64,000 nt of DNA, from positions 51,070-115,069 of the IMG/VR virus record IMGVR_UViG_3300047557_001498; one strand, written 5' to 3'. The DNA comes from a virus. Positions 1 to 51,761 of this stretch are shown here, piece after piece (within the stretch, counting starts at the first letter, position 1; the number at the start of each line of letters is the position of its first letter). The position numbers and the translations under genes are program-made. A model generated the notes under the pieces. The model had not been told where the DNA came from, ran no database searches, and saw only the letters and a program-made list of their open reading frames with translations.

Positions 1-1312
1 GTGATTTGTATGATTGAGTTTCATCGTCAGAATACATTTCACGATTGAAATATGGCGGTGATGTGAAAACAAAATCTAACTTACCTTCATACTTTTGGAA
101 TTTAGGATTGTGTTGAATCAATTCTGAACCATCTTGAAAAACATCATACGTGTGATCCTCTTTTACATCGAAAAATCTTGATGAAAGTGAACTACCTTTT
201 TCACCAATGGATTTCAAATAAAAATCAGCAAGATATTCATAACGAGTTATTCCCAATTCTGGAATAGAATTGTCTGTATTAGGATCAGTTCCAACATAAT
301 GTATTGGACGACTTACAGACATTGCACCGAGTATTCTACCACCCCACCCTGCACTTGGATCATATACCGTCACCATTTCACTTGCCGGAATATGTTTCGT
401 AAAATGTTCATACAAAAACTTTGCAGTCATTGGCGGAAAATTTACAGCAGGTTGTGAGAATGAAATACGGAATATCTGAAATGCTTGTGGAAATAACTTT
501 GCACTCTTTTCATATACTCTAACCAAGAAAACGTTTACTCTTGGTTCTTCACCGTCTTTTTTTATCATAAAATTATCAGACAATTCATCTATATCACCCA
601 AATAAAAAATCATACTTTCATCAAGTATTCCATCCTTAACAAACTCACGAATTTGATCGGCTTTGATAGTTAAATACTTTGTATATTTTTTATTGTAAGT
701 TTCAAGTGTACACGATATTTTTGAAATACGCAAACCTTGTCCATCAAATCTACCATCACCATTCTTAAATGCTAAGAAGAAATCTCGAAGTGTTTCTCCC
801 TCACGGAAGTATGGGTTCTTGATTTGATTTGATGAAATGGATTTACTATACAAATACATTGAATCGTTATACAGAGTTCTACGCATAACATGATGAAATG
901 TCTCTTTCATTTCATCGGTGAAGAAATCGTAAATAGATCGTGAAGTTTCACCGTTTGTTCCACTGGCAATTTTTGTTTTCAACATTGTTGGGAAGAATTG
1001 ATTAGCTGCAGAACCGTTTTTAGAAAAATTGGCAATGACGCCGATGATGTCAGCGTCATTACCTTTTTCTGGATTATGAAAAATCTTTGAAGAATTGAAT
1101 TGACGGAGCTTTGAAAATGATTGTATGATTTCTTCTTCACTTCTGCCAACAAGTGGCGGTTTACCATTTTCATCCCAATCTTTCAAAAACCTCATTCGTA
1201 AATCTTCTACCCATTCGGAAAACTTTTTATCGTCATAAGTTACCAACTCACCATATGTTATATTACATGGCCAGGACAGAACATTACCTTTTTCATAAAA
1301 ATATTTTTGCAT
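1..1312 (-). CDS. Amino-DNA methyltransferase (N6-adenine/N4-cytosine type); 3' end runs off the window; missed by the ORF track
   Basis: Manual translation from the ATG at 1312 (overlaps the clamp stop, TGATG): MQKYFYEKGNVLSWPCN... In the same frame are the SAM-binding motif YDPSAGWGGR and the catalytic motif VFTSPPYF (near nt 45-70). Confidence 0.85.
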   Translation of the reverse strand, partial: MQKYFYEKGNVLSWPCNITYGELVTYDDKKFSEWVEDLRMRFLKDWDENGKPPLVGRSEEEIIQSFSKLRQFNSSKIFHNPEKGNDADIIGVIANFSKNGSAANQFFPTMLKTKIASGTNGETSRSIYDFFTDEMKETFHHVMRRTLYNDSMYLYSKSISSNQIKNPYFREGETLRDFFLAFKNGDGRFDGQGLRISKISCTLETYNKKYTKYLTIKADQIREFVKDGILDESMIFYLGDIDELSDNFMIKKDGEEPRVNVFLVRVYEKSAKLFPQAFQIFRISFSQPAVNFPPMTAKFLYEHFTKHIPASEMVTVYDPSAGWGGRILGAMSVSRPIHYVGTDPNTDNSIPELGITRYEYLADFYLKSIGEKGSSLSSRFFDVKEDHTYDVFQDGSELIQHNPKFQKYEGKLDFVFTSPPYFNREMYSDDETQSYKS

Positions 1313-2031
1313 CAGTTGTTATCCAATTTTACTAAATAATATTTGGCTTCAAAATCATCAATATCAAATTCAACTTTTGCCAAACCTTCGGAAGAAACTT
1401 TAAGAGTTCCACCATTAAGGTCTTTATTAGCAGCAAGAATACCGTTAAAGTATTTTGCAGAGAAACTAATCGGATCAATATCACCACTTGCATTACAATC
1501 AATATCAATAGAGATACGGTTTGAATTTGTATTTGAATAACCAAGAACAATTTGATATTTGTTCAATTTATCATTCTTCAATACCGTGAACTTTTCAATA
1601 TCAGATAGTGCAGATTTTGCCTTAATGAATTTGTCAATAAATTCTTTTGTAATCGTAATATCCAATTCAAAAGGTGGCAACTCTTTTAGGTCTGGTGCAG
1701 GTGGAATTACTGCAAGGTCAGCCAACATATAATTTACCGTAGTTGATTTGTCATCAATAGTTAATGAGAACGCCTTATCACCTGCACCGTTTACTTGAAA
1801 GTTTACTGTATTACCAAGAACTCCCAATAAACTCACAAGCAGGTCAGTATTGTAAACTCCAAATTTCCAAGAATCTCCTTGAAAACTTTTTAACTTAACT
1901 TCACCAACAACACACTTATCATCGGAAATAAAACGAGTAGATAAACCACCGTTCATATTCCAAGCAACCGATTGAATCAACTTACCCAAGTGATACTTGC
2001 TGATAAAGTTGAGCAACTTTGATTTTTCCAT
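1312..2031 (-). CDS. DNA polymerase sliding clamp (T4 gp45-like)
   Basis: 239 aa, beta-rich, C-terminal AKYYLV; next to PolB; SD-like AAGGA upstream. Confidence 0.75.
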   Translation of the reverse strand: MEKSKLLNFISKYHLGKLIQSVAWNMNGGLSTRFISDDKCVVGEVKLKSFQGDSWKFGVYNTDLLVSLLGVLGNTVNFQVNGAGDKAFSLTIDDKSTTVNYMLADLAVIPPAPDLKELPPFELDITITKEFIDKFIKAKSALSDIEKFTVLKNDKLNKYQIVLGYSNTNSNRISIDIDCNASGDIDPISFSAKYFNGILAANKDLNGGTLKVSSEGLAKVEFDIDDFEAKYYLVKLDNN

Positions 2032-2066
2032 AACAAAAATCCTTAATGATTAGAAAATAATGTATA

Positions 2067-2097
2067 CAAATATACGAAAAAATTTTGAATTATCAAA
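2067..2097 (-). promoter_or_regulatory. Bacteroidota-type sigma-A promoter (-33 TTTG, 19 nt, -7 TATATTTG)
   Basis: Minus strand reads TTTG-ataattcaaaattttttcg-TATATTTG just upstream of the clamp gene; matches TTTG-N19-21-TAnnTTTG. Confidence 0.75.
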
Positions 2098-3007
2098 ACG
2101 AAAAAAACTTTTGTGCAACTTTTTTGTTCTCCGTTGGGAAATCCCACTTCATTGCATCATAAAAGTTTCTTAACTTGCCATCCAATTCAGATACAAATAA
2201 TTCGTTGGCATCAAAATGTTCTTTGATAAACTCAATAATTTCATCTGGATCGGAATCTCCACGAAAAGCCAACTCCTCCAAACCATATTTGTTGGCTTTT
2301 AAATAAGCAATCTTAACCTTATCACCATTTTTGATTGGAGGAAACTTTGGAGGACAACCAAATACTTTTAATAACTTATTGTAATTTATAGCAGCTTTAA
2401 TATGTGATGGTGTTCCTTTTCCGAATTTACCAAGAACATCATCCGTAACCATGCTTGCATATTTTTTAATGTCTTTAATAGAAGATGTCTTTGCAACCTC
2501 TGAATACAAAACTGTATTCAGATTTCTTTTGAAAGATAAAATATTTTCATCTATGTCCTTTTTATTTTTGTCTTTGAGAATATCAACTATAACATTTTTC
2601 ATAAGTTTCTGAAACGATTTTGGGAATGATGAGCGCACAATATCCAATCCTTTAACTTCTAACTTATCAACCGATACTCCATTATCTGAAATAATCCATA
2701 GTGCATATCTCTTTTTCTTTTGCCAGAAACCCGTTCTACCAATCATTTCTTGTTTAATTTCTAAACGATGTTTGTCTGTATTGAATATCTTTTTAGCAAA
2801 AACATCATAGAATTGATTAACATAATTTTGAACTTCAGTTGCAATTTCGTAAATTTTAGGTGTCATAGAATCAATATCATTGGTATCTATTTCAGGAAAT
2901 CTATTCTTAACGAGAGGCAGACAAGAAACGAAAACAGAATCCGTGTCTACATATTGAACATGATCTATTTCAACATTTTCATTTTTTATTATTTTTTTTA
3001 TTTTCAT
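2093..3007 (-). CDS. Family B DNA polymerase, C-terminal subunit (palm motif C and thumb)
   Basis: YVDTDS, KKRY and KGLDIVRS motifs; C-terminal clamp-binding-like QKFFSF; extra basic N-terminal peptide MKIKKIIKNEN. Confidence 0.92.
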   Translation of the reverse strand: MKIKKIIKNENVEIDHVQYVDTDSVFVSCLPLVKNRFPEIDTNDIDSMTPKIYEIATEVQNYVNQFYDVFAKKIFNTDKHRLEIKQEMIGRTGFWQKKKRYALWIISDNGVSVDKLEVKGLDIVRSSFPKSFQKLMKNVIVDILKDKNKKDIDENILSFKRNLNTVLYSEVAKTSSIKDIKKYASMVTDDVLGKFGKGTPSHIKAAINYNKLLKVFGCPPKFPPIKNGDKVKIAYLKANKYGLEELAFRGDSDPDEIIEFIKEHFDANELFVSELDGKLRNFYDAMKWDFPTENKKVAQKFFSF

Positions 3008-3023
3008 ATCGAATCAATATATT

Positions 3024-3671
3024 TTACAAATTAAGAAAACTTTTATACGAACATGATATATTTGCATTGTCTAAATAGTGTTTAAATTCTACATCCGAAT
3101 CTCTTTCTTCTGGTGTGAAATACCACGGTATATGTTTTGCCCTATAATCAACTAAACTAACACCACCGATGAATGCATCTTTTATATTGTAAACAGCAAA
3201 TGTAGTATCTATCAATACATTTATCAAACAACCTTCAAGTTCTGTTGATTGCGTTTGTCTAGATTTTTCATACGATTGTATGTGATCATAATACGGCGAA
3301 TCAATCGGAACATCGTGAAAGTCTAATGTTAAACCAACCTTACCATAATCTGGAAATTTTTCAAGAATAGATATTGATTTTGTCAAACAATCTGTTGGTG
3401 TGATTGATAAATCTAAATCAGGATCTGTTACAACATAGTAATCTGATTCTAATGAATTAACCAATCCCGAAATCCATGGTGCATGATGGCCTAAATTTTC
3501 AGTTCTAACAACTCTAATATCCGTTTCACTATACCATTCCAAAAGAGGTTCATATGTACTATCATTATCTAAAATTATTATTTCACCGACCATATCAAAC
3601 TTTGAAATGTATTCTATCATTTTTCTTGGCCATGTCAATAAGTTTCTATTATTTATTATTACTGGAATCAT
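3024..3671 (-). CDS. GT-A fold (GT2-like) glycosyltransferase inserted between the PolB halves
   Basis: IPVIINN...IIILDNDST...YYVVTDPDL (DxD) pattern. Confidence 0.75.
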   Translation of the reverse strand: MIPVIINNRNLLTWPRKMIEYISKFDMVGEIIILDNDSTYEPLLEWYSETDIRVVRTENLGHHAPWISGLVNSLESDYYVVTDPDLDLSITPTDCLTKSISILEKFPDYGKVGLTLDFHDVPIDSPYYDHIQSYEKSRQTQSTELEGCLINVLIDTTFAVYNIKDAFIGGVSLVDYRAKHIPWYFTPEERDSDVEFKHYLDNANISCSYKSFLNL

Positions 3672-3686
3672 TTTTTTTCCAAAAAA

Positions 3687-5453
3687 TTATACAATATCAT
3701 CTGTTTCTAAAAGTTCAGACGCCTTAACTTTTGTCAATATACCATTTCTCATTATGGATATAAAATTATTTGAATAGTATGTTCGAGTTGAATTGTCTTC
3801 CATTTTAACAATTACCTCATATCCAAGCTCTTTATTGTATTTCATGTTTATAGCAGCTTCTGTTTTTTTGATAACGGTTTGACCGGATAGAGTAACCGCT
3901 TCAGCATTATCAATATCATAAAAACGAAATGCCGGTAAACCCAAAATACCATACATAGAATTAAGAAGAATTTTTTGAACAAGTTGTCTTTTCTTGTAAA
4001 ACTCATACTTTTCTGTATCACCCGCATTACCCCACTTCTTCATTTCATTTTTATACTCAACCCTCTTATCAAACCAATCAGAAAGAATTGCTGGAATAAG
4101 TCCTGTTCTTTCTGAACTATACATTACCCCATTTGATGCAACGGTGTATTTGTATTTATCCAAAAATGCCTTTAACTTTTCTTTCGATACCGTTTCACCA
4201 CCAACAATATATGCATCTACATTACCACGAAGAAATTCTTCTGCATTCCAATTCTCAATCTTAGCAATTTTTGTTTCCGGTGAAATGTTTAGTGTCATAA
4301 TGATTGACGGATAAAGTGATGTTAAGTCCAAGTCATACATCCACTCATATCTACCAGGAACGGGATCCTTAACAAATGCTCCAATAAATCCCTTCTCACC
4401 ACTATCTTTCAATTCTTGCATTTTTTCTTGTCTATCTGCAGGTTTGTTCGGAGCAACAACACCACCAATATGCTTCAGATATGTCAGCATCGCACCTTCA
4501 AGATACTTTGATGAATAAACAAAATCTTCATAAGGAACATGACCGACATGAGCAATACCTCTAACTAAATCGATATATTGTAATTTCTTATCCAAATCAA
4601 TTACCAACTCAACGTCAGTAATGTTGTAATCAATAAATGTATCAATATCGTTTTCCATCAAATCATCAAGATTACCCTCATACTCAACCTTACCACGACC
4701 AAGTTCTGTTATTGAAACATAATCTAATGAATAAGATGGTAGCTCCTTATATGAGAATTTTTTGTAAACAGTCATATAATCTAACACAGATGTCCCACCT
4801 ATTGTATATCGGTTTCTATATGGAGAATAAAACATTTCACCGATAACAGAAAGATTGTTTGCTTGTTTTTTACCGAGAACACGTTTGATGCGATTATACA
4901 AATATGGAATATCGAATGCATCACAATTCCAACCCGTCATAACATGGGGTTGAATTTCTTGAATAGCATCTATAAATTTTAATAACAAAGTTTTTTCATC
5001 GTAACATGGAATTACTGTTTTGTTATGGGTAGTTTTTGAATCTAATTTTTTTTTCTTGTCCAATACAAGAATTGTGTAATGGTCTGATGCAGAATCATGG
5101 TAAGCGATAGATGTTACTTCATTGTTACCTTGTGTTGGATCTGGAACACCTGTAATCATTTCAACCTCAATATCAAATGTCATAGTAACTATTCCATTTG
5201 ACGGCATATCTGAATCGCCGTACATATCAACGAGAATACGAGTAGTCTCTGCAATATCAGATTCAAACAAGTCTGGATCATTCTTAACAAAGTTTGTAAC
5301 CTTTGATAGTTTATCACCATATAGAGAAATATATTTACCGTTAGGATCTTTTTTGTAAGCATACGGTTTATATTCAAAATGTAATAAACCTTTGGTATCA
5401 TCCCAAACCCACGCTTCTCTTGTATTTGTTTTTACGAAAATGTTTTGATACAT
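3687..5453 (-). CDS. Family B DNA polymerase, N-terminal subunit (3'-5' exonuclease, motifs A and B); likely start MYQNIF at 5453
   Basis: ExoI FDIEV, ExoII GWNCDAFDIPY, ExoIII YNITDV, motif A DLTSLYPSII, motif B KILLNSMYG; ends in a 44-aa non-polymerase tail. Confidence 0.93.
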   Translation of the reverse strand: MYQNIFVKTNTREAWVWDDTKGLLHFEYKPYAYKKDPNGKYISLYGDKLSKVTNFVKNDPDLFESDIAETTRILVDMYGDSDMPSNGIVTMTFDIEVEMITGVPDPTQGNNEVTSIAYHDSASDHYTILVLDKKKKLDSKTTHNKTVIPCYDEKTLLLKFIDAIQEIQPHVMTGWNCDAFDIPYLYNRIKRVLGKKQANNLSVIGEMFYSPYRNRYTIGGTSVLDYMTVYKKFSYKELPSYSLDYVSITELGRGKVEYEGNLDDLMENDIDTFIDYNITDVELVIDLDKKLQYIDLVRGIAHVGHVPYEDFVYSSKYLEGAMLTYLKHIGGVVAPNKPADRQEKMQELKDSGEKGFIGAFVKDPVPGRYEWMYDLDLTSLYPSIIMTLNISPETKIAKIENWNAEEFLRGNVDAYIVGGETVSKEKLKAFLDKYKYTVASNGVMYSSERTGLIPAILSDWFDKRVEYKNEMKKWGNAGDTEKYEFYKKRQLVQKILLNSMYGILGLPAFRFYDIDNAEAVTLSGQTVIKKTEAAINMKYNKELGYEVIVKMEDNSTRTYYSNNFISIMRNGILTKVKASELLETDDIV

Positions 5454-5454
5454 A

Positions 5455-6681
5455 TTAAACTCTCTTAAACATCCATATTGGTTCACAAAACTTTTTATCT
5501 CTATTCTTCTCGGCAAATTCTACACTATCATCAAGGAAATGTCCGTCTCTTGTTGCAGTTCCTGCACCGGCAGAGTTTGGTCTTTTTGACATTTCCATTC
5601 CGATACAACCGATATATTCCATTCCATTCTCTACAAGGAAATCACTCATTGGGTTTGTTATCTCTAACCATTGACGACCGGTAGACCATGCAGAGTTTGT
5701 GTAAACATCTGCAATGTTTATTGCCATAATACCACCAACTCTCAATGATGGGATGATATTACCCAATGTTTTATGTAGAAAGTTTTTATTCCATTCATCA
5801 ATACCTTTATATCGAACCCAACTTTGTGTGTCTGATTGTGAATACTTCTCAACATTAAAATATGGTGGTGATGTAAACACCAAGTCAAAGTGTTCCGGAT
5901 ATTGTGTGAAATCGAAATCTTCTGCTGGTGATGTATAAAAATTCGTTTTCTTTTTACTTTCAAAGAAACCTAAATTCTTTTCATAGAACTGTTTTTGTTC
6001 TTCATATATCGGATGATTTTCTACTCTTGGATCCAAACCAACATAATGTTCGGTACAAGATGCTGCATAAAAACCAGCAAGTCTGTCACCCCATCCCATA
6101 GAGAAATCCAATACATTCTTTACACCCAACATTTCATATAGAACTTTAGCAACATTTGGTTTAAACTGTGAACAAATGTATTTACGAAGACCTAACATGG
6201 TTCTTAATTCCGATTTACCAAGTGTTTCCATTTTGAGTGAATACATGGAACCCATTAGTGATTTCATAAACTTATGGTTAGACCATGTTCTGGCAGGACC
6301 TGGTGAAACTGATGCATCAACTTCCCAACGATTCTTTTGTTGAAAATAATTTGATGCATCGTTACCAGTATTCAAACGACTGAAATATAATTGTTTTCCC
6401 TCATATGTCAAAGCATATTTTGGTTCAGACGCCTTTCTTGGAAACCACTCACCTTCGGTTAGCAATTCATTCCAACGAATACCTTTGAGTTTTAGAAACT
6501 CTCGTTGTGCATCTTCAATAGTAATTTCAGCGTAAGGTAAAGGGTATGTCATTGCTATTTCAGCAAGACGATCCTTTACATATTCTTTATCGAAGTTTTC
6601 TTTTATGTATGTTATTTGTTCGGCAGTTATTGTTAGATACGGTTCCATACCGTAAAATTGTTGGAAGTAATCTTGTTGCAC
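5455..6681 (-). CDS. Amino-DNA methyltransferase (N6A/N4C), paralog of the gene at 1..1312
   Basis: LDFSMGWGDRLAG (motif I) and FTSPPYF (motif IV); GTG start. Confidence 0.88.
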   Translation of the reverse strand: MQQDYFQQFYGMEPYLTITAEQITYIKENFDKEYVKDRLAEIAMTYPLPYAEITIEDAQREFLKLKGIRWNELLTEGEWFPRKASEPKYALTYEGKQLYFSRLNTGNDASNYFQQKNRWEVDASVSPGPARTWSNHKFMKSLMGSMYSLKMETLGKSELRTMLGLRKYICSQFKPNVAKVLYEMLGVKNVLDFSMGWGDRLAGFYAASCTEHYVGLDPRVENHPIYEEQKQFYEKNLGFFESKKKTNFYTSPAEDFDFTQYPEHFDLVFTSPPYFNVEKYSQSDTQSWVRYKGIDEWNKNFLHKTLGNIIPSLRVGGIMAINIADVYTNSAWSTGRQWLEITNPMSDFLVENGMEYIGCIGMEMSKRPNSAGAGTATRDGHFLDDSVEFAEKNRDKKFCEPIWMFKRV

Positions 6682-7983: not shown

Positions 7984-8490
7984 TCATTTTTTATCTGTTG
8001 AACCAAATCCACCATCGCCTCTATTACTATCAGACAGTTCTCGAACTTCTTCAAAATGAACGGTTGGGTATGGAATGATTATCAACTGAGCAATTTTATC
8101 GCCAACTTTTGGAACATTGTTTATCCATTCTTCATCAAATGGAAAACTTGGATATTCAAATCTAGCAAGAATTTCACCACGATAATTTGAATCAATAACT
8201 CCAACTGAATTTTTTAATGATACACCCGATAGTGCCTTTGTTATTGAGCTTCTTGGAAAAAGAAGTCCAACATAACCACTTGGAATTTCTACGGCAATAC
8301 CTGTTCCATATTCCATGAATGTTTTATCCTTTCTCAATGATGTTGCAGTTAAATCCAAACCAGCATCACCATCTTGTGCATATCGTGGTGTTACTGCTTC
8401 AGGTACTAATTTACGAAATTTTACAGTTAAATCCAAATTATTTTTGTAATTTAATTTGTAATTGGGAAACCATTTGCCAACCAAACTCAT
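7984..8490 (-). CDS. dut: Trimeric dUTPase
   Basis: AGLDL, PRSS, GVIDSNYRGEI, AQLII and RGDGGFGST motifs. Confidence 0.95.
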   Translation of the reverse strand: MSLVGKWFPNYKLNYKNNLDLTVKFRKLVPEAVTPRYAQDGDAGLDLTATSLRKDKTFMEYGTGIAVEIPSGYVGLLFPRSSITKALSGVSLKNSVGVIDSNYRGEILARFEYPSFPFDEEWINNVPKVGDKIAQLIIIPYPTVHFEEVRELSDSNRGDGGFGSTDKK

Positions 8491-8491
8491 T

Positions 8492-9241
8492 TTAACCTCC
8501 TACATTCCAAAATAATGCATCATCCGATGCGTGTTCTCTAATAAATGACCAAACTTTTGAATCGTAATAATCCGAAGATGGAAACGGTGGTTTCTCTGCG
8601 GGTTTACATTTTTGTGTGAATTTATACTTTGATACGAAGATTTCTGCCCTACCTCTCTCTCTATCGGTAGTATTGTGACCAACTCTAACACCATATATTT
8701 TTGCATCTGGCCATGCCTTCTGTAATCCCCTTGACAGAACACCTGAACTTATACATGACCAAACTTCTTTTGGTTGTATTGGAAGTGAACTCGCAATTCT
8801 AGCAACTTCATCAATAACAACAGGATGGTCAAGACCAAATGGTAATAATTGTGAACCGGGAGTTTCTACTGCATATTTTTTAGCAACGTGTTGAATGTGT
8901 GTAAGAAATCCCATAGGAACTTCTATAATGTTTGCACCAATAGAAATTGCTTCTTTGGTTAGTGGTAGATGTTTTCCTTTCGGAATGATAACTGTTGCCT
9001 TCAATCCCAAATCTCTACAAGCATAAGCAAGTGCAACTTGAGCATAGCCAACTCTCGGTGAAGCATAAACCCATTCCCTTACATGAGATTGTGATTGAAG
9101 ATAACGATATAAAAATCTTCTCTTTGTTCCACCAGGAAGTAAGTCATCACGAACTACCCAAATGTTTTCATGTTTTTCAATAACAACATCTGGTAAAGTT
9201 ACCGTAACATCTTTCGTTGGATATTGAAAGAAGTCTGACAT
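8492..9241 (-). CDS. PLP-dependent fold-type II enzyme (ACC deaminase/D-cysteine desulfhydrase-like)
   Basis: VRDDLLPGGTKRR (PLP lysine), SSGVLSRG phosphate loop, YDSK, FWNVG. Confidence 0.8.
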   Translation of the reverse strand: MSDFFQYPTKDVTVTLPDVVIEKHENIWVVRDDLLPGGTKRRFLYRYLQSQSHVREWVYASPRVGYAQVALAYACRDLGLKATVIIPKGKHLPLTKEAISIGANIIEVPMGFLTHIQHVAKKYAVETPGSQLLPFGLDHPVVIDEVARIASSLPIQPKEVWSCISSGVLSRGLQKAWPDAKIYGVRVGHNTTDRERGRAEIFVSKYKFTQKCKPAEKPPFPSSDYYDSKVWSFIREHASDDALFWNVGG

Positions 9242-50630: not shown

Positions 50631-51761
50631 TCATCCAACATAAATTAACAAAGGACTACCGACTAATGTTCCATTCAAAGCATCAACTTCAGCTTTCTTT
50701 GCCTCTAATAGTTTTGCACGTGTTGTTGTGTCAAGTATTTCACGTAGTTCTGCAACCAAAGCAGTTTTTTCTGCAGTAGCGGCAGATAAAAGGTCAGCTG
50801 CATTTAGTGTTGTTTCACCATTTGGGATAGGAATTGATCCATATTTACCACGAACATATCCAAGTGTTTCTTTTGCCAATGCCAAAGCATAACTGTATAC
50901 CCACGTTTTTCCAACTGAATTTATATTTCCATAATTCATAAAATCATAAGGAGCGTTTGAAAAATCAGAAACAGATCCCGTTGGATATTTTAATGGATTA
51001 TTCCTTTCTTCTTTTATGATATACTCTACCCACAATTTAAATTCTTTCACAGGAACTGGAAATATTCTCAATTTATTATTAAGCAATTCAAATGAATATG
51101 CCGATTTACGCATCATATCATTGAACTCAATCGCTTGAACACGAAGTAAATCCGCATACATAGGCATCAACGTAAAAGATACGCCGGTTGAATATGCACC
51201 AAATCCAAATGTATCTAACATTGCCTGATTACCCAAATATGGATCATAAAAACGCATTGCAGCCGGTAGTGGGTAATGGTGAACTCTTTTTATTTCTATT
51301 GAACCCGTTGGTGCGTGAATATCTCTAACCAAAGAATTTAAATCATAAGTCTGTTGTCCGTTCTGAATATCAATAGATGCACTATAAAAATTTACATTAC
51401 CGTTTGTAAATGTATCAACACCATATTCTGTTGCAATTTGTATAATACCGCCAAGATTTGGTGATATATTTCTTTGGGTAGCATTATTAGATGTTGGTGT
51501 TCCTATCAAACTTAAAAGATTTTGTTGTATATTAAATTGATTCACTTGATTGGAATATTCCGAAACTGCTTCTTCAAAACAAGCATAAAAATTTTCAGCT
51601 TGTAATTCCACATCAACGAGTGGATAACCCAATCTCTTTGCACACCAATTAGCAACATGATCCGCATCTAATTGAAACTGTGGATCTGCATCATATAAAC
51701 CGAATGGTGTACTTCCGGTTGTAAAGGTTGATGTACCAGGCCAAATTGGAATATCTGTCAT
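50631..51761 (-). CDS. Head-tail adaptor / neck protein (T4 gp13-like)
   Basis: RLGYPLVDVEL, YALALAKETLGYVRGKY..IPIP. Confidence 0.8.
   Translation of the reverse strand: MTDIPIWPGTSTFTTGSTPFGLYDADPQFQLDADHVANWCAKRLGYPLVDVELQAENFYACFEEAVSEYSNQVNQFNIQQNLLSLIGTPTSNNATQRNISPNLGGIIQIATEYGVDTFTNGNVNFYSASIDIQNGQQTYDLNSLVRDIHAPTGSIEIKRVHHYPLPAAMRFYDPYLGNQAMLDTFGFGAYSTGVSFTLMPMYADLLRVQAIEFNDMMRKSAYSFELLNNKLRIFPVPVKEFKLWVEYIIKEERNNPLKYPTGSVSDFSNAPYDFMNYGNINSVGKTWVYSYALALAKETLGYVRGKYGSIPIPNGETTLNAADLLSAATAEKTALVAELREILDTTTRAKLLEAKKAEVDALNGTLVGSPLLIYVG

Follow-up and report, generated by a model that had tools for sequence, protein, structure and literature searches.

A split family B DNA polymerase gene in a freshwater virus, with a predicted Hint-like tail at the break and a glycosyltransferase gene between the halves

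Phage enzymes encoded in pieces have been described in several forms, with which we compare here a family B DNA polymerase (PolB) gene that lies in two halves around a third open reading frame (ORF). The locus is in a stretch of 64,000 nucleotides (the window; positions 51,070 to 115,069 of IMG/VR virus record IMGVR_UViG_3300047557_001498), part of a freshwater record of 115 kb with a CheckV completeness of 65%. In Aeromonas phage Aeh1, the ‘genes in pieces’ nrdA-a / mobE / nrdA-b encode foreign, oppositely charged tails that are essential for activity (Friedrich 2007; Crona et al. 2011, PMC3045599), for which the authors in 2011 speculated about an origin from a split intein that had degenerated (PMC3045599). 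For the T4 MobA element (gene 39 / mobA / gene 60), conserved C- and N-terminal extensions (CTE and NTE) on gp39 and gp60 were proposed as a general strategy (bioRxiv 10.1101/2022.08.31.505936), and the structure of T4 topoisomerase II contains a TOPRIM insertion of ~70 aa that serves as an ‘assembly bracket’ (PMC11461880, PDB 8YO3). Fractured genes (Dassa et al. 2009; gp41-1, NrdJ-1, IMPDH-1) carry complete split inteins together with a free-standing homing endonuclease, and these inteins splice (PMC2677866). Finally, in T4-like phages of Aeromonas, Acinetobacter and Vibrio, gp43 is split into two active polypeptides that purify together, and the two genes sometimes have an endonuclease gene between them (Petrov, Ratnayaka & Karam 2010; PMC2988022).

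We consider the following account of the window’s locus rather probable. A mobile cassette consisting of a tail, a homing endonuclease and a head would have invaded the sole PolB gene in the loop between the helix that follows motif B and the motif C strand, supplying a stop and a restart and adding a C-terminal extension (the tail) to the upstream half and an N-terminal extension (the head) to the downstream half. The tail would derive from the middle part of a Hint domain, the C-terminal half of a split-intein N-fragment (IntN), and would be dead for splicing; the short basic head would stand where the C-fragment (IntC) has its first strand. The two polymerase chains would be made separately and never ligated, assembling through the native PolB interface with the aid of tail and head. 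In the window’s lineage, the endonuclease gene would then have been replaced by a gene for a GT-A glycosyltransferase.

The break in the polymerase gene

By their reading frames, the PolB N-half, the middle ORF and the PolB C-half are three tightly packed ORFs on the minus strand (Table 1). Together the two halves hold the exonuclease and polymerase domains of a family B polymerase, with motifs DLTSLYPS (A), KILLNSMYG (B) and YVDTDS (C) readable and a match of Pfam DNA_pol_B_exo1 to the N-half body. The Pfam DNA_pol_B profile continues from one product to the other (profile positions 27-217 in the N-half, 218-355 in the C-half), so the break is clean and no polymerase sequence has been lost. 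In Microcystis phage Mel-JY01, the closest relative in culture, PolB is unsplit (848 aa, 62% identity). The N-half aligns to its residues 1-553 (62% identity) up to ...NKELG, and the C-half body to its residues 558-847 (61% identity) from DHVQYVDTDS onwards. At the break, Mel-JY01 reads ...NTELG-TIGK-DYIQYIDTDS; as only TIGK lies between the aligned parts, the foreign parts of the window’s gene are a tail of 44 aa and a head of 14 aa. The site is a variable surface loop between the helix that follows motif B and the motif C strand.

A preliminary description of this DNA, made from the letters alone, had placed the break between motifs B and C, on which the ORFs, the Pfam positions and the Mel-JY01 alignment agree, although the AINMKYNKELG that it assigned to motif B lies ~40 aa after that motif (KILLNSMYG) and not within it. 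The foreign 44-aa tail that it gave to the N-half is indeed without counterpart in Mel-JY01 and is absent from 78/80 close relatives. The head that it gave to the C-half is likewise foreign and basic, but is 14 aa long (MKIKKIIKNENVEI) rather than the 11 aa quoted. The comparison with unsplit homologues that it suggested confirms the limits of the insertion, both by the alignment to Mel-JY01 and by that to an unsplit related contig (L026).

From these sequence comparisons, the split is a derived state, since 78/80 related viral contigs are unsplit, a quick maximum-likelihood tree places the window’s N-half body, with support, among unsplit forms, and other split PolB forms fall in at least four separate places in the same tree. 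The unsplit contigs carry a variable loop of 4-5 aa at the break position. With L026, the N-half body shares 97% protein identity, and at the DNA level 863 nt of the window (3828..2966) stand in place of 19 nt of that contig. Contigs from two independent freshwater metagenome studies bridge the head, the middle ORF and the tail with 1-2 differences, so the arrangement is not an assembly artefact. A group I intron at the split was considered and rejected, as Rfam gave no intron match in positions 1500-6500.

The gene might instead be a pseudogene in decay, carried by a defective or satellite-dependent phage, and a record that is 65% complete leaves room for a second polymerase. We regard this as highly improbable. 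Both halves are intact, with all catalytic motifs present; no other PolB or PolA was found in the 115-kb record; and the same arrangement has been recovered by several metagenome studies. Compared with a split relative (L088), non-synonymous differences per site are low in both bodies (0.13-0.16), while synonymous differences are saturated (proportion of synonymous differences, pS, 0.81-0.85). The two chains would together form an active polymerase.

Tail and head as a mobile module

Homologues of the tail were sought among 1.84 billion representative proteins by means of a three-tail profile. The five matches comprised three PolB ends, one fragment of a family-A polymerase (P0011) and one eukaryotic leucine-rich repeat (LRR) kinase, the last of which we rejected as spurious repeat similarity. 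Homologous tails end PolB N-halves in several metagenome clusters, and one ends the PolB N-piece of the 484-kb uncultured phage LR756508, whose PolB is only 36% identical to the window’s; its C-half lies ~3 kb from the N-piece and begins with a similar head (MKTKKIK). P0011 (159 aa, from an ENA contig of 1.1 kb) is a Pol I-type fragment that ends between motifs A and B in a homologous tail, the end of which (...VKASELLETDEI) is nearly identical to that of the window’s tail; a search of viral contigs found nothing for its locus. In three further contigs (L006/L087 and L088), tail and head flank an ORF of 289-320 aa with four NUMOD3 motifs that matches PHROG homing-endonuclease families. Heads in relatives follow the pattern MKIK[KQS]I..K.... 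before DHV.YVDTDS, with similar heads in L088, L006, P0133, P0147 and LR756508 and none in unsplit PolBs. Both extensions at the break are accordingly foreign to unsplit homologues, and they travel with the endonuclease in a patchy, mobile distribution, as seen in the L006/L087/L088 flanks, the four or more places in the tree and the PolA tail.

The tail shows an omega (ratio of non-synonymous to synonymous change) of 0.05 between L006 and L088, compared with 0.046 for the adjacent PolB body, and of ~0.15 between the window and L088; its synonymous sites are near saturation and its non-synonymous change is low. By this measure the tail is under purifying selection, like the enzyme body, and the low omega together with the shared endonuclease context indicates a selected peptide that moves with the endonuclease cassette.

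An AlphaFold2 model of 49 residues (NKELG plus the tail), built from a 12-row alignment, gave a four-stranded beta unit (mean predicted local distance difference test score, pLDDT, 90.7). When the model was compared with the PDB (48,161 representatives) using Foldseek, inteins and hedgehog proteins came top (TMq 0.6-0.77, root-mean-square deviation (rmsd) 1.3-1.7 Å over 40-45 residues), whereas unrelated matches had TMq ~0.3 and rmsd 9-12 Å; the E-values are only ~1 because the model is small. The model always aligned to the same segment (gp41-1 40-85, NrdJ-1 56-105, DnaX 49-91, Mxe GyrA 52-104), where the IntN of gp41-1 is 88 aa long (bioRxiv 10.1101/546465). Against BFVD, the matches were split and intein-containing viral polymerases, ribonucleotide reductases and a topoisomerase fragment (TMq 0.75-0.86). 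The ESM Atlas feature neighbours of the tail were mostly Hint families (scores 0.76-0.84), which we take as a lead only. By three-dimensional similarity, the predicted model is thus a partial Hint fold; the modelling supports its identification with the C-terminal half of an intein N-fragment, and on this predicted structure we think it likely that the tail derives from a Hint domain.

Sequence searches weigh against such an origin or are silent on it. Scans of individual tails with Pfam and NCBIfam returned nothing at E<=10, and no intein turned up when a tail profile was compared with PDB sequences. Genome-wide searches with TIGR01445 and PF14890 missed the tails; in two related phage records, TIGR01445 recognised nine true inteins but not the tails, and it had no match in the window’s genome. 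An hhalign comparison of the tail with eight inteins aligned the last 12 columns only (P 0.03, probability 1.5%), and the tail hidden Markov model (HMM), run among 3,473 ORFs, did not rank inteins above noise. The half-intein identity proposed in the preliminary description therefore stands as far as the predicted fold is concerned, while intein profiles and profile-profile comparison do not detect it. A rival reading takes the tail for a small beta-meander that converged on a partial Hint shape, with no evolutionary link to inteins. We consider such convergence improbable, as nearly all of the matches among the 48,161 PDB representatives are inteins, always at the same segment, as the motif spacing parallels (by eye) that from block B through the split site, and as the tail occurs in a fractured-gene context, with replication genes, a homing endonuclease and many true inteins in the same phages.

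The same description held that every splicing residue is missing, and this proved correct. The first tail residue is not conserved (Tyr in the window; Y, C, D, G, T or K in relatives, the Cys of P0008 being the only possible relic nucleophile among them). The TxxH positions of block B read Y-S-N-N, or YY.NN in relatives, with His only in the PolA tail of P0011. Intein blocks A, F and G are absent, the foreign parts amounting to only 44 + 14 aa vs ~125 aa or more for a complete Hint domain, and of gp41-1, only residues 40-85 have an equivalent in the tail model. The head ends in ...NVEI and is followed directly by the Asp of DHVQY, with no terminal (His-)Asn and no +1 Cys/Ser/Thr. A complete intein fold, a position-1 nucleophile, TxxH, a C-terminal Asn with its +1 residue and matches to the curated profiles (TIGR01445, PF14890, Pfam Hint clan) are all lacking here.

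The halves could nevertheless be joined: chemically unusual trans-splicing of the proteins, RNA splicing or bypassing might do so, and both the Cys at the start of the P0008 tail and a recoding-like 5-nt insertion in motif C of relatives would fit this. About half of the Hint domain (blocks A, F, G) is missing, however, as are a conserved nucleophile, a terminal Asn and a +1 Cys/Ser/Thr; no Rfam intron was found, and the halves are separated by a conserved, intact ORF that has a start of its own. We give such routes almost no credence: because the splicing residues and blocks are absent and a conserved gene with its own start intervenes, the sequences make covalent joining very unlikely. As there are no splicing residues, the chains (about 68 and 35 kDa, masses computed from their lengths) most likely remain distinct molecules that associate non-covalently.

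How they would be held is suggested by analogy with split inteins, in which a charge zipper between the C-terminal end of IntN and the start of IntC has been described (PMC2677866; bioRxiv 10.1101/546465). The tail end is acidic (SELLETDDIV) and the head start basic, matching this zipper by analogy, and head and tail would then bind each other. The head may represent the first IntC strand, but here too a point counts against our account: its likeness to IntC is weak, because the head is only 14 aa long, the resemblance involves ~10 residues, and many AT-rich phage ORFs begin with MKxKK (e.g. the neighbours in LR756508, L002). Tail and head might also come from the cassette and yet form no clasp. 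The halves would then assemble through their large native interface, the tail being kept for folding or solubility of the truncated N-half, for protecting the termini, for translational coupling or because it destroys the endonuclease target. Several observations favour this and speak against a clasp: the Aeh1 NrdA halves still bind each other after tail deletion (PMC3045599), the T4 insertion is described as a pendant that makes no difference to activity in a fusion of the two proteins (PMC11461880), AlphaFold2 folds the tail confidently without the head, and the head is short and of common composition. On the other side, tail and head are found together, and each is conserved, in PolBs that share only 36-46% identity, their opposite charges recur in split inteins (PMC2677866, bioRxiv 10.1101/546465), and the tail, as modelled, would be the very part of IntN that contacts IntC. 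We judge an arrangement with no clasp unlikely, though worth keeping in view.

Some relatives with tails carry further interruptions. In LR756508.1 (L002:3001-6054, L089:490-2355), true inteins interrupt both motif B and motif C (the latter as YTD / S...VVHN / TDS) in addition to the non-splicing tail/head break, and two paralogous ORFs of unassigned function lie between its PolB halves. In two tail-bearing PolB N-halves (P0002, P0003), the exonuclease region is also interrupted by a full intein that includes a LAGLIDADG domain (GWNC/...HN/CDAFD). Relatives that have retained the endonuclease show a 5-nt insertion, TAATG, within motif C (YVDT-stop / MDSVFVS; L006:7378-7450, also L005 and L087, and P0143-P0145). 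Unless it is overcome by recoding, this insertion breaks the C-half a second time; since three diverged protein clusters start at MDSVF, a sequencing error does not account for it. Motif C of the window is intact.

The glycosyltransferase gene and the surrounding locus

The passenger had been described beforehand as a GT-A glycosyltransferase, an assignment that we could substantiate by predicted structure. Against Pfam Glycos_transf_2, the middle ORF scores below the gathering threshold (E 0.022, 15.1 bits vs a cut-off of 23.3). It has more than 369 homologues of ~216 aa, some of them named GT2 by their sources. Its AlphaFold2 model (pLDDT 95.7) gave 256 PDB matches at E<=0.001, and all of those listed are GT-A enzymes or related nucleotidyltransferases; they include dolichyl-phosphate mannose synthase (DPMS), SpsA and GalNAc-transferases (E about 1e-6). 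The DxD motif (D83-P-D85) is invariant in 51 homologues, and the ORF thus combines a predicted GT-A fold with its motif. Elsewhere, members of this glycosyltransferase family are clustered with further copies of their own and with other ORFs, and no homologue was found beside PolB in the related loci.

As relatives hold a homing endonuclease in the same slot, the simplest reading is that the glycosyltransferase gene replaced the endonuclease gene in an already split polymerase gene, the endonuclease presumably having come first and the glycosyltransferase later. It tells against this part of our account that the replacement is deduced only from relatives.

Table 1 Features of the split PolB locus (window positions).
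Feature	Position	Strand	Length and remarks
PolB N-half	3687-5453	minus	588 aa from the ATG matching the homologues’ start; stop 3687-3689
PolB N-half body (N-terminal, exonuclease, palm motif A, fingers motif B; ends ...AINMKYNKELG)	3822..5453	minus	544 aa
N-half C-terminal tail (CTE), YEVIVKMEDNS...ELLETDDIV	3690..3821	minus	44 aa; predicted four-stranded beta mini-domain
Spacer from N-half stop to middle ORF start, TTTTTTGGAAAAAAA	3672..3686	minus	15 nt; sequence read
Middle ORF, GT-A-fold (GT2-like) glycosyltransferase	3024..3671	minus	215 aa
Spacer from middle ORF stop to C-half start	3008..3023	minus	16 nt; sequence read
C-half N-terminal basic head (NTE), MKIKKIIKNENVEI	2966..3007	minus	14 aa
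PolB C-half	2093-3007	minus	304 aa
PolB C-half body (motif C DHVQYVDTDS, rest of palm, thumb)	2093..2965	minus	290 aa + stop

No terminator-like site was found between the three ORFs on the minus strand, and a promoter scan gave a result no better than shuffles. Co-transcription of the three ORFs is probable. The N-half and the glycosyltransferase ORF share a reading frame and are separated by one TAA and five codons (a T6-GG-A7 spacer; window 3672-3689), and read-through of the N-half stop would yield an N-half/glycosyltransferase fusion. In L006, the N-half and endonuclease ORFs are likewise in frame. The window’s head, by contrast, is read in another frame than the tail, beyond the glycosyltransferase gene, so the DNA encodes no single chain that contains both.

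Two large paralogous ORFs lie on either side of the polymerase region (window 2-1312 and 5455-6681). Both contain FTSPPYFN, a motif typical of N6/N4 DNA methyltransferases. An ORF of 239 aa (1312-2031) is matched in L087 by one that immediately follows the PolB genes on their downstream side (8165-8884).

Comparison with known systems

The preliminary description went too far in presenting the arrangement as undescribed, as non-covalent tails of endonuclease cassettes have been published (PMC3045599; bioRxiv 10.1101/2022.08.31.505936; PMC11461880). The principle itself is therefore not new; what is new here is the Hint-fold evidence, the PolB site and the exchange of cargo. In a literature search that was not exhaustive, we found no published assignment of a Hint fold to such non-splicing tails. 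A wider proposition, which we put forward tentatively and with more doubt than confidence, is that the CTE/NTE assembly tails of endonuclease cassettes are one family of splicing-dead half-Hint modules from split inteins (in this PolB, in a PolA, perhaps in the T4 gp39/gp60 bracket, and in others). These would act as portable heterodimerisation tags that make insertion harmless, the break becoming a cargo slot once the endonuclease is lost. The locus described here itself offers a concrete explanation, open to test, of how split phage enzymes come back together, a question raised in the literature (PMC2988022). It also points to small natural heterodimerisation tags for protein engineering, and shows that an unrelated cargo gene can be carried within an essential one. 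For annotation, tails of this kind would explain polymerase halves that are often miscalled as fragments.

Like the split gp43, the window’s polymerase is a T4-type PolB encoded as two polypeptides. The breaks differ in position, however: in split gp43 (Asfd_1, Acj9, PVA8, S-N03), the break is at the fingers tip, before motif B, whereas the window’s lies between motifs B and C, and we rejected the Aeromonas-type gp43 splits as a same-site precedent for this reason. Inspection of the split gp43 breaks by eye showed no long foreign extension comparable to the tail of 44 aa. The PolB N-pieces of Synechococcus phage S-N03 (L003:4350-4410) and Vibrio phage PVA8 (L004:4155-4227) both end in ...E(E/A)EMKRRGL.

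The T4 MobA element differs from the window’s cassette in also carrying a 50-nt bypass. No sequence similarity of the window’s tail to the MobA CTE/NTE was detectable by HMM, and the papers on that element do not call its insertion Hint-like. With Aeh1 the window shares an essential, replication-related enzyme split at a critical site by a homing-endonuclease insertion, no splicing, and oppositely charged foreign C- and N-terminal tails that are absent from unsplit homologues. In Aeh1, however, the host gene is NrdA, the endonuclease is the HNH enzyme MobE, and the tails are without database matches or a fold assignment, whereas the tail studied here has a predicted Hint-like fold and occurs on two polymerase families, and a glycosyltransferase gene occupies the endonuclease slot.

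The layout of the window’s relatives is like that of the fractured genes (N-half with N-piece, endonuclease, C-piece with C-half). Phage replication hosts, a break at the canonical split/endonuclease site of the Hint fold and charge complementarity are common to both. A free-standing endonuclease lies between the halves in L006/L087 and L088, and in the window a GT-A gene stands there instead; the inteins of fractured genes are complete (about 88-105 + 35-40 aa), compared with only about 44 + 14 aa at the window’s PolB. If our account holds, the locus would connect fractured genes repaired by split inteins with ‘genes in pieces’ repaired by the non-covalent tails of endonuclease cassettes, and the tail would be an intermediate between them, a Hint fragment that has kept its docking role and lost its chemistry.

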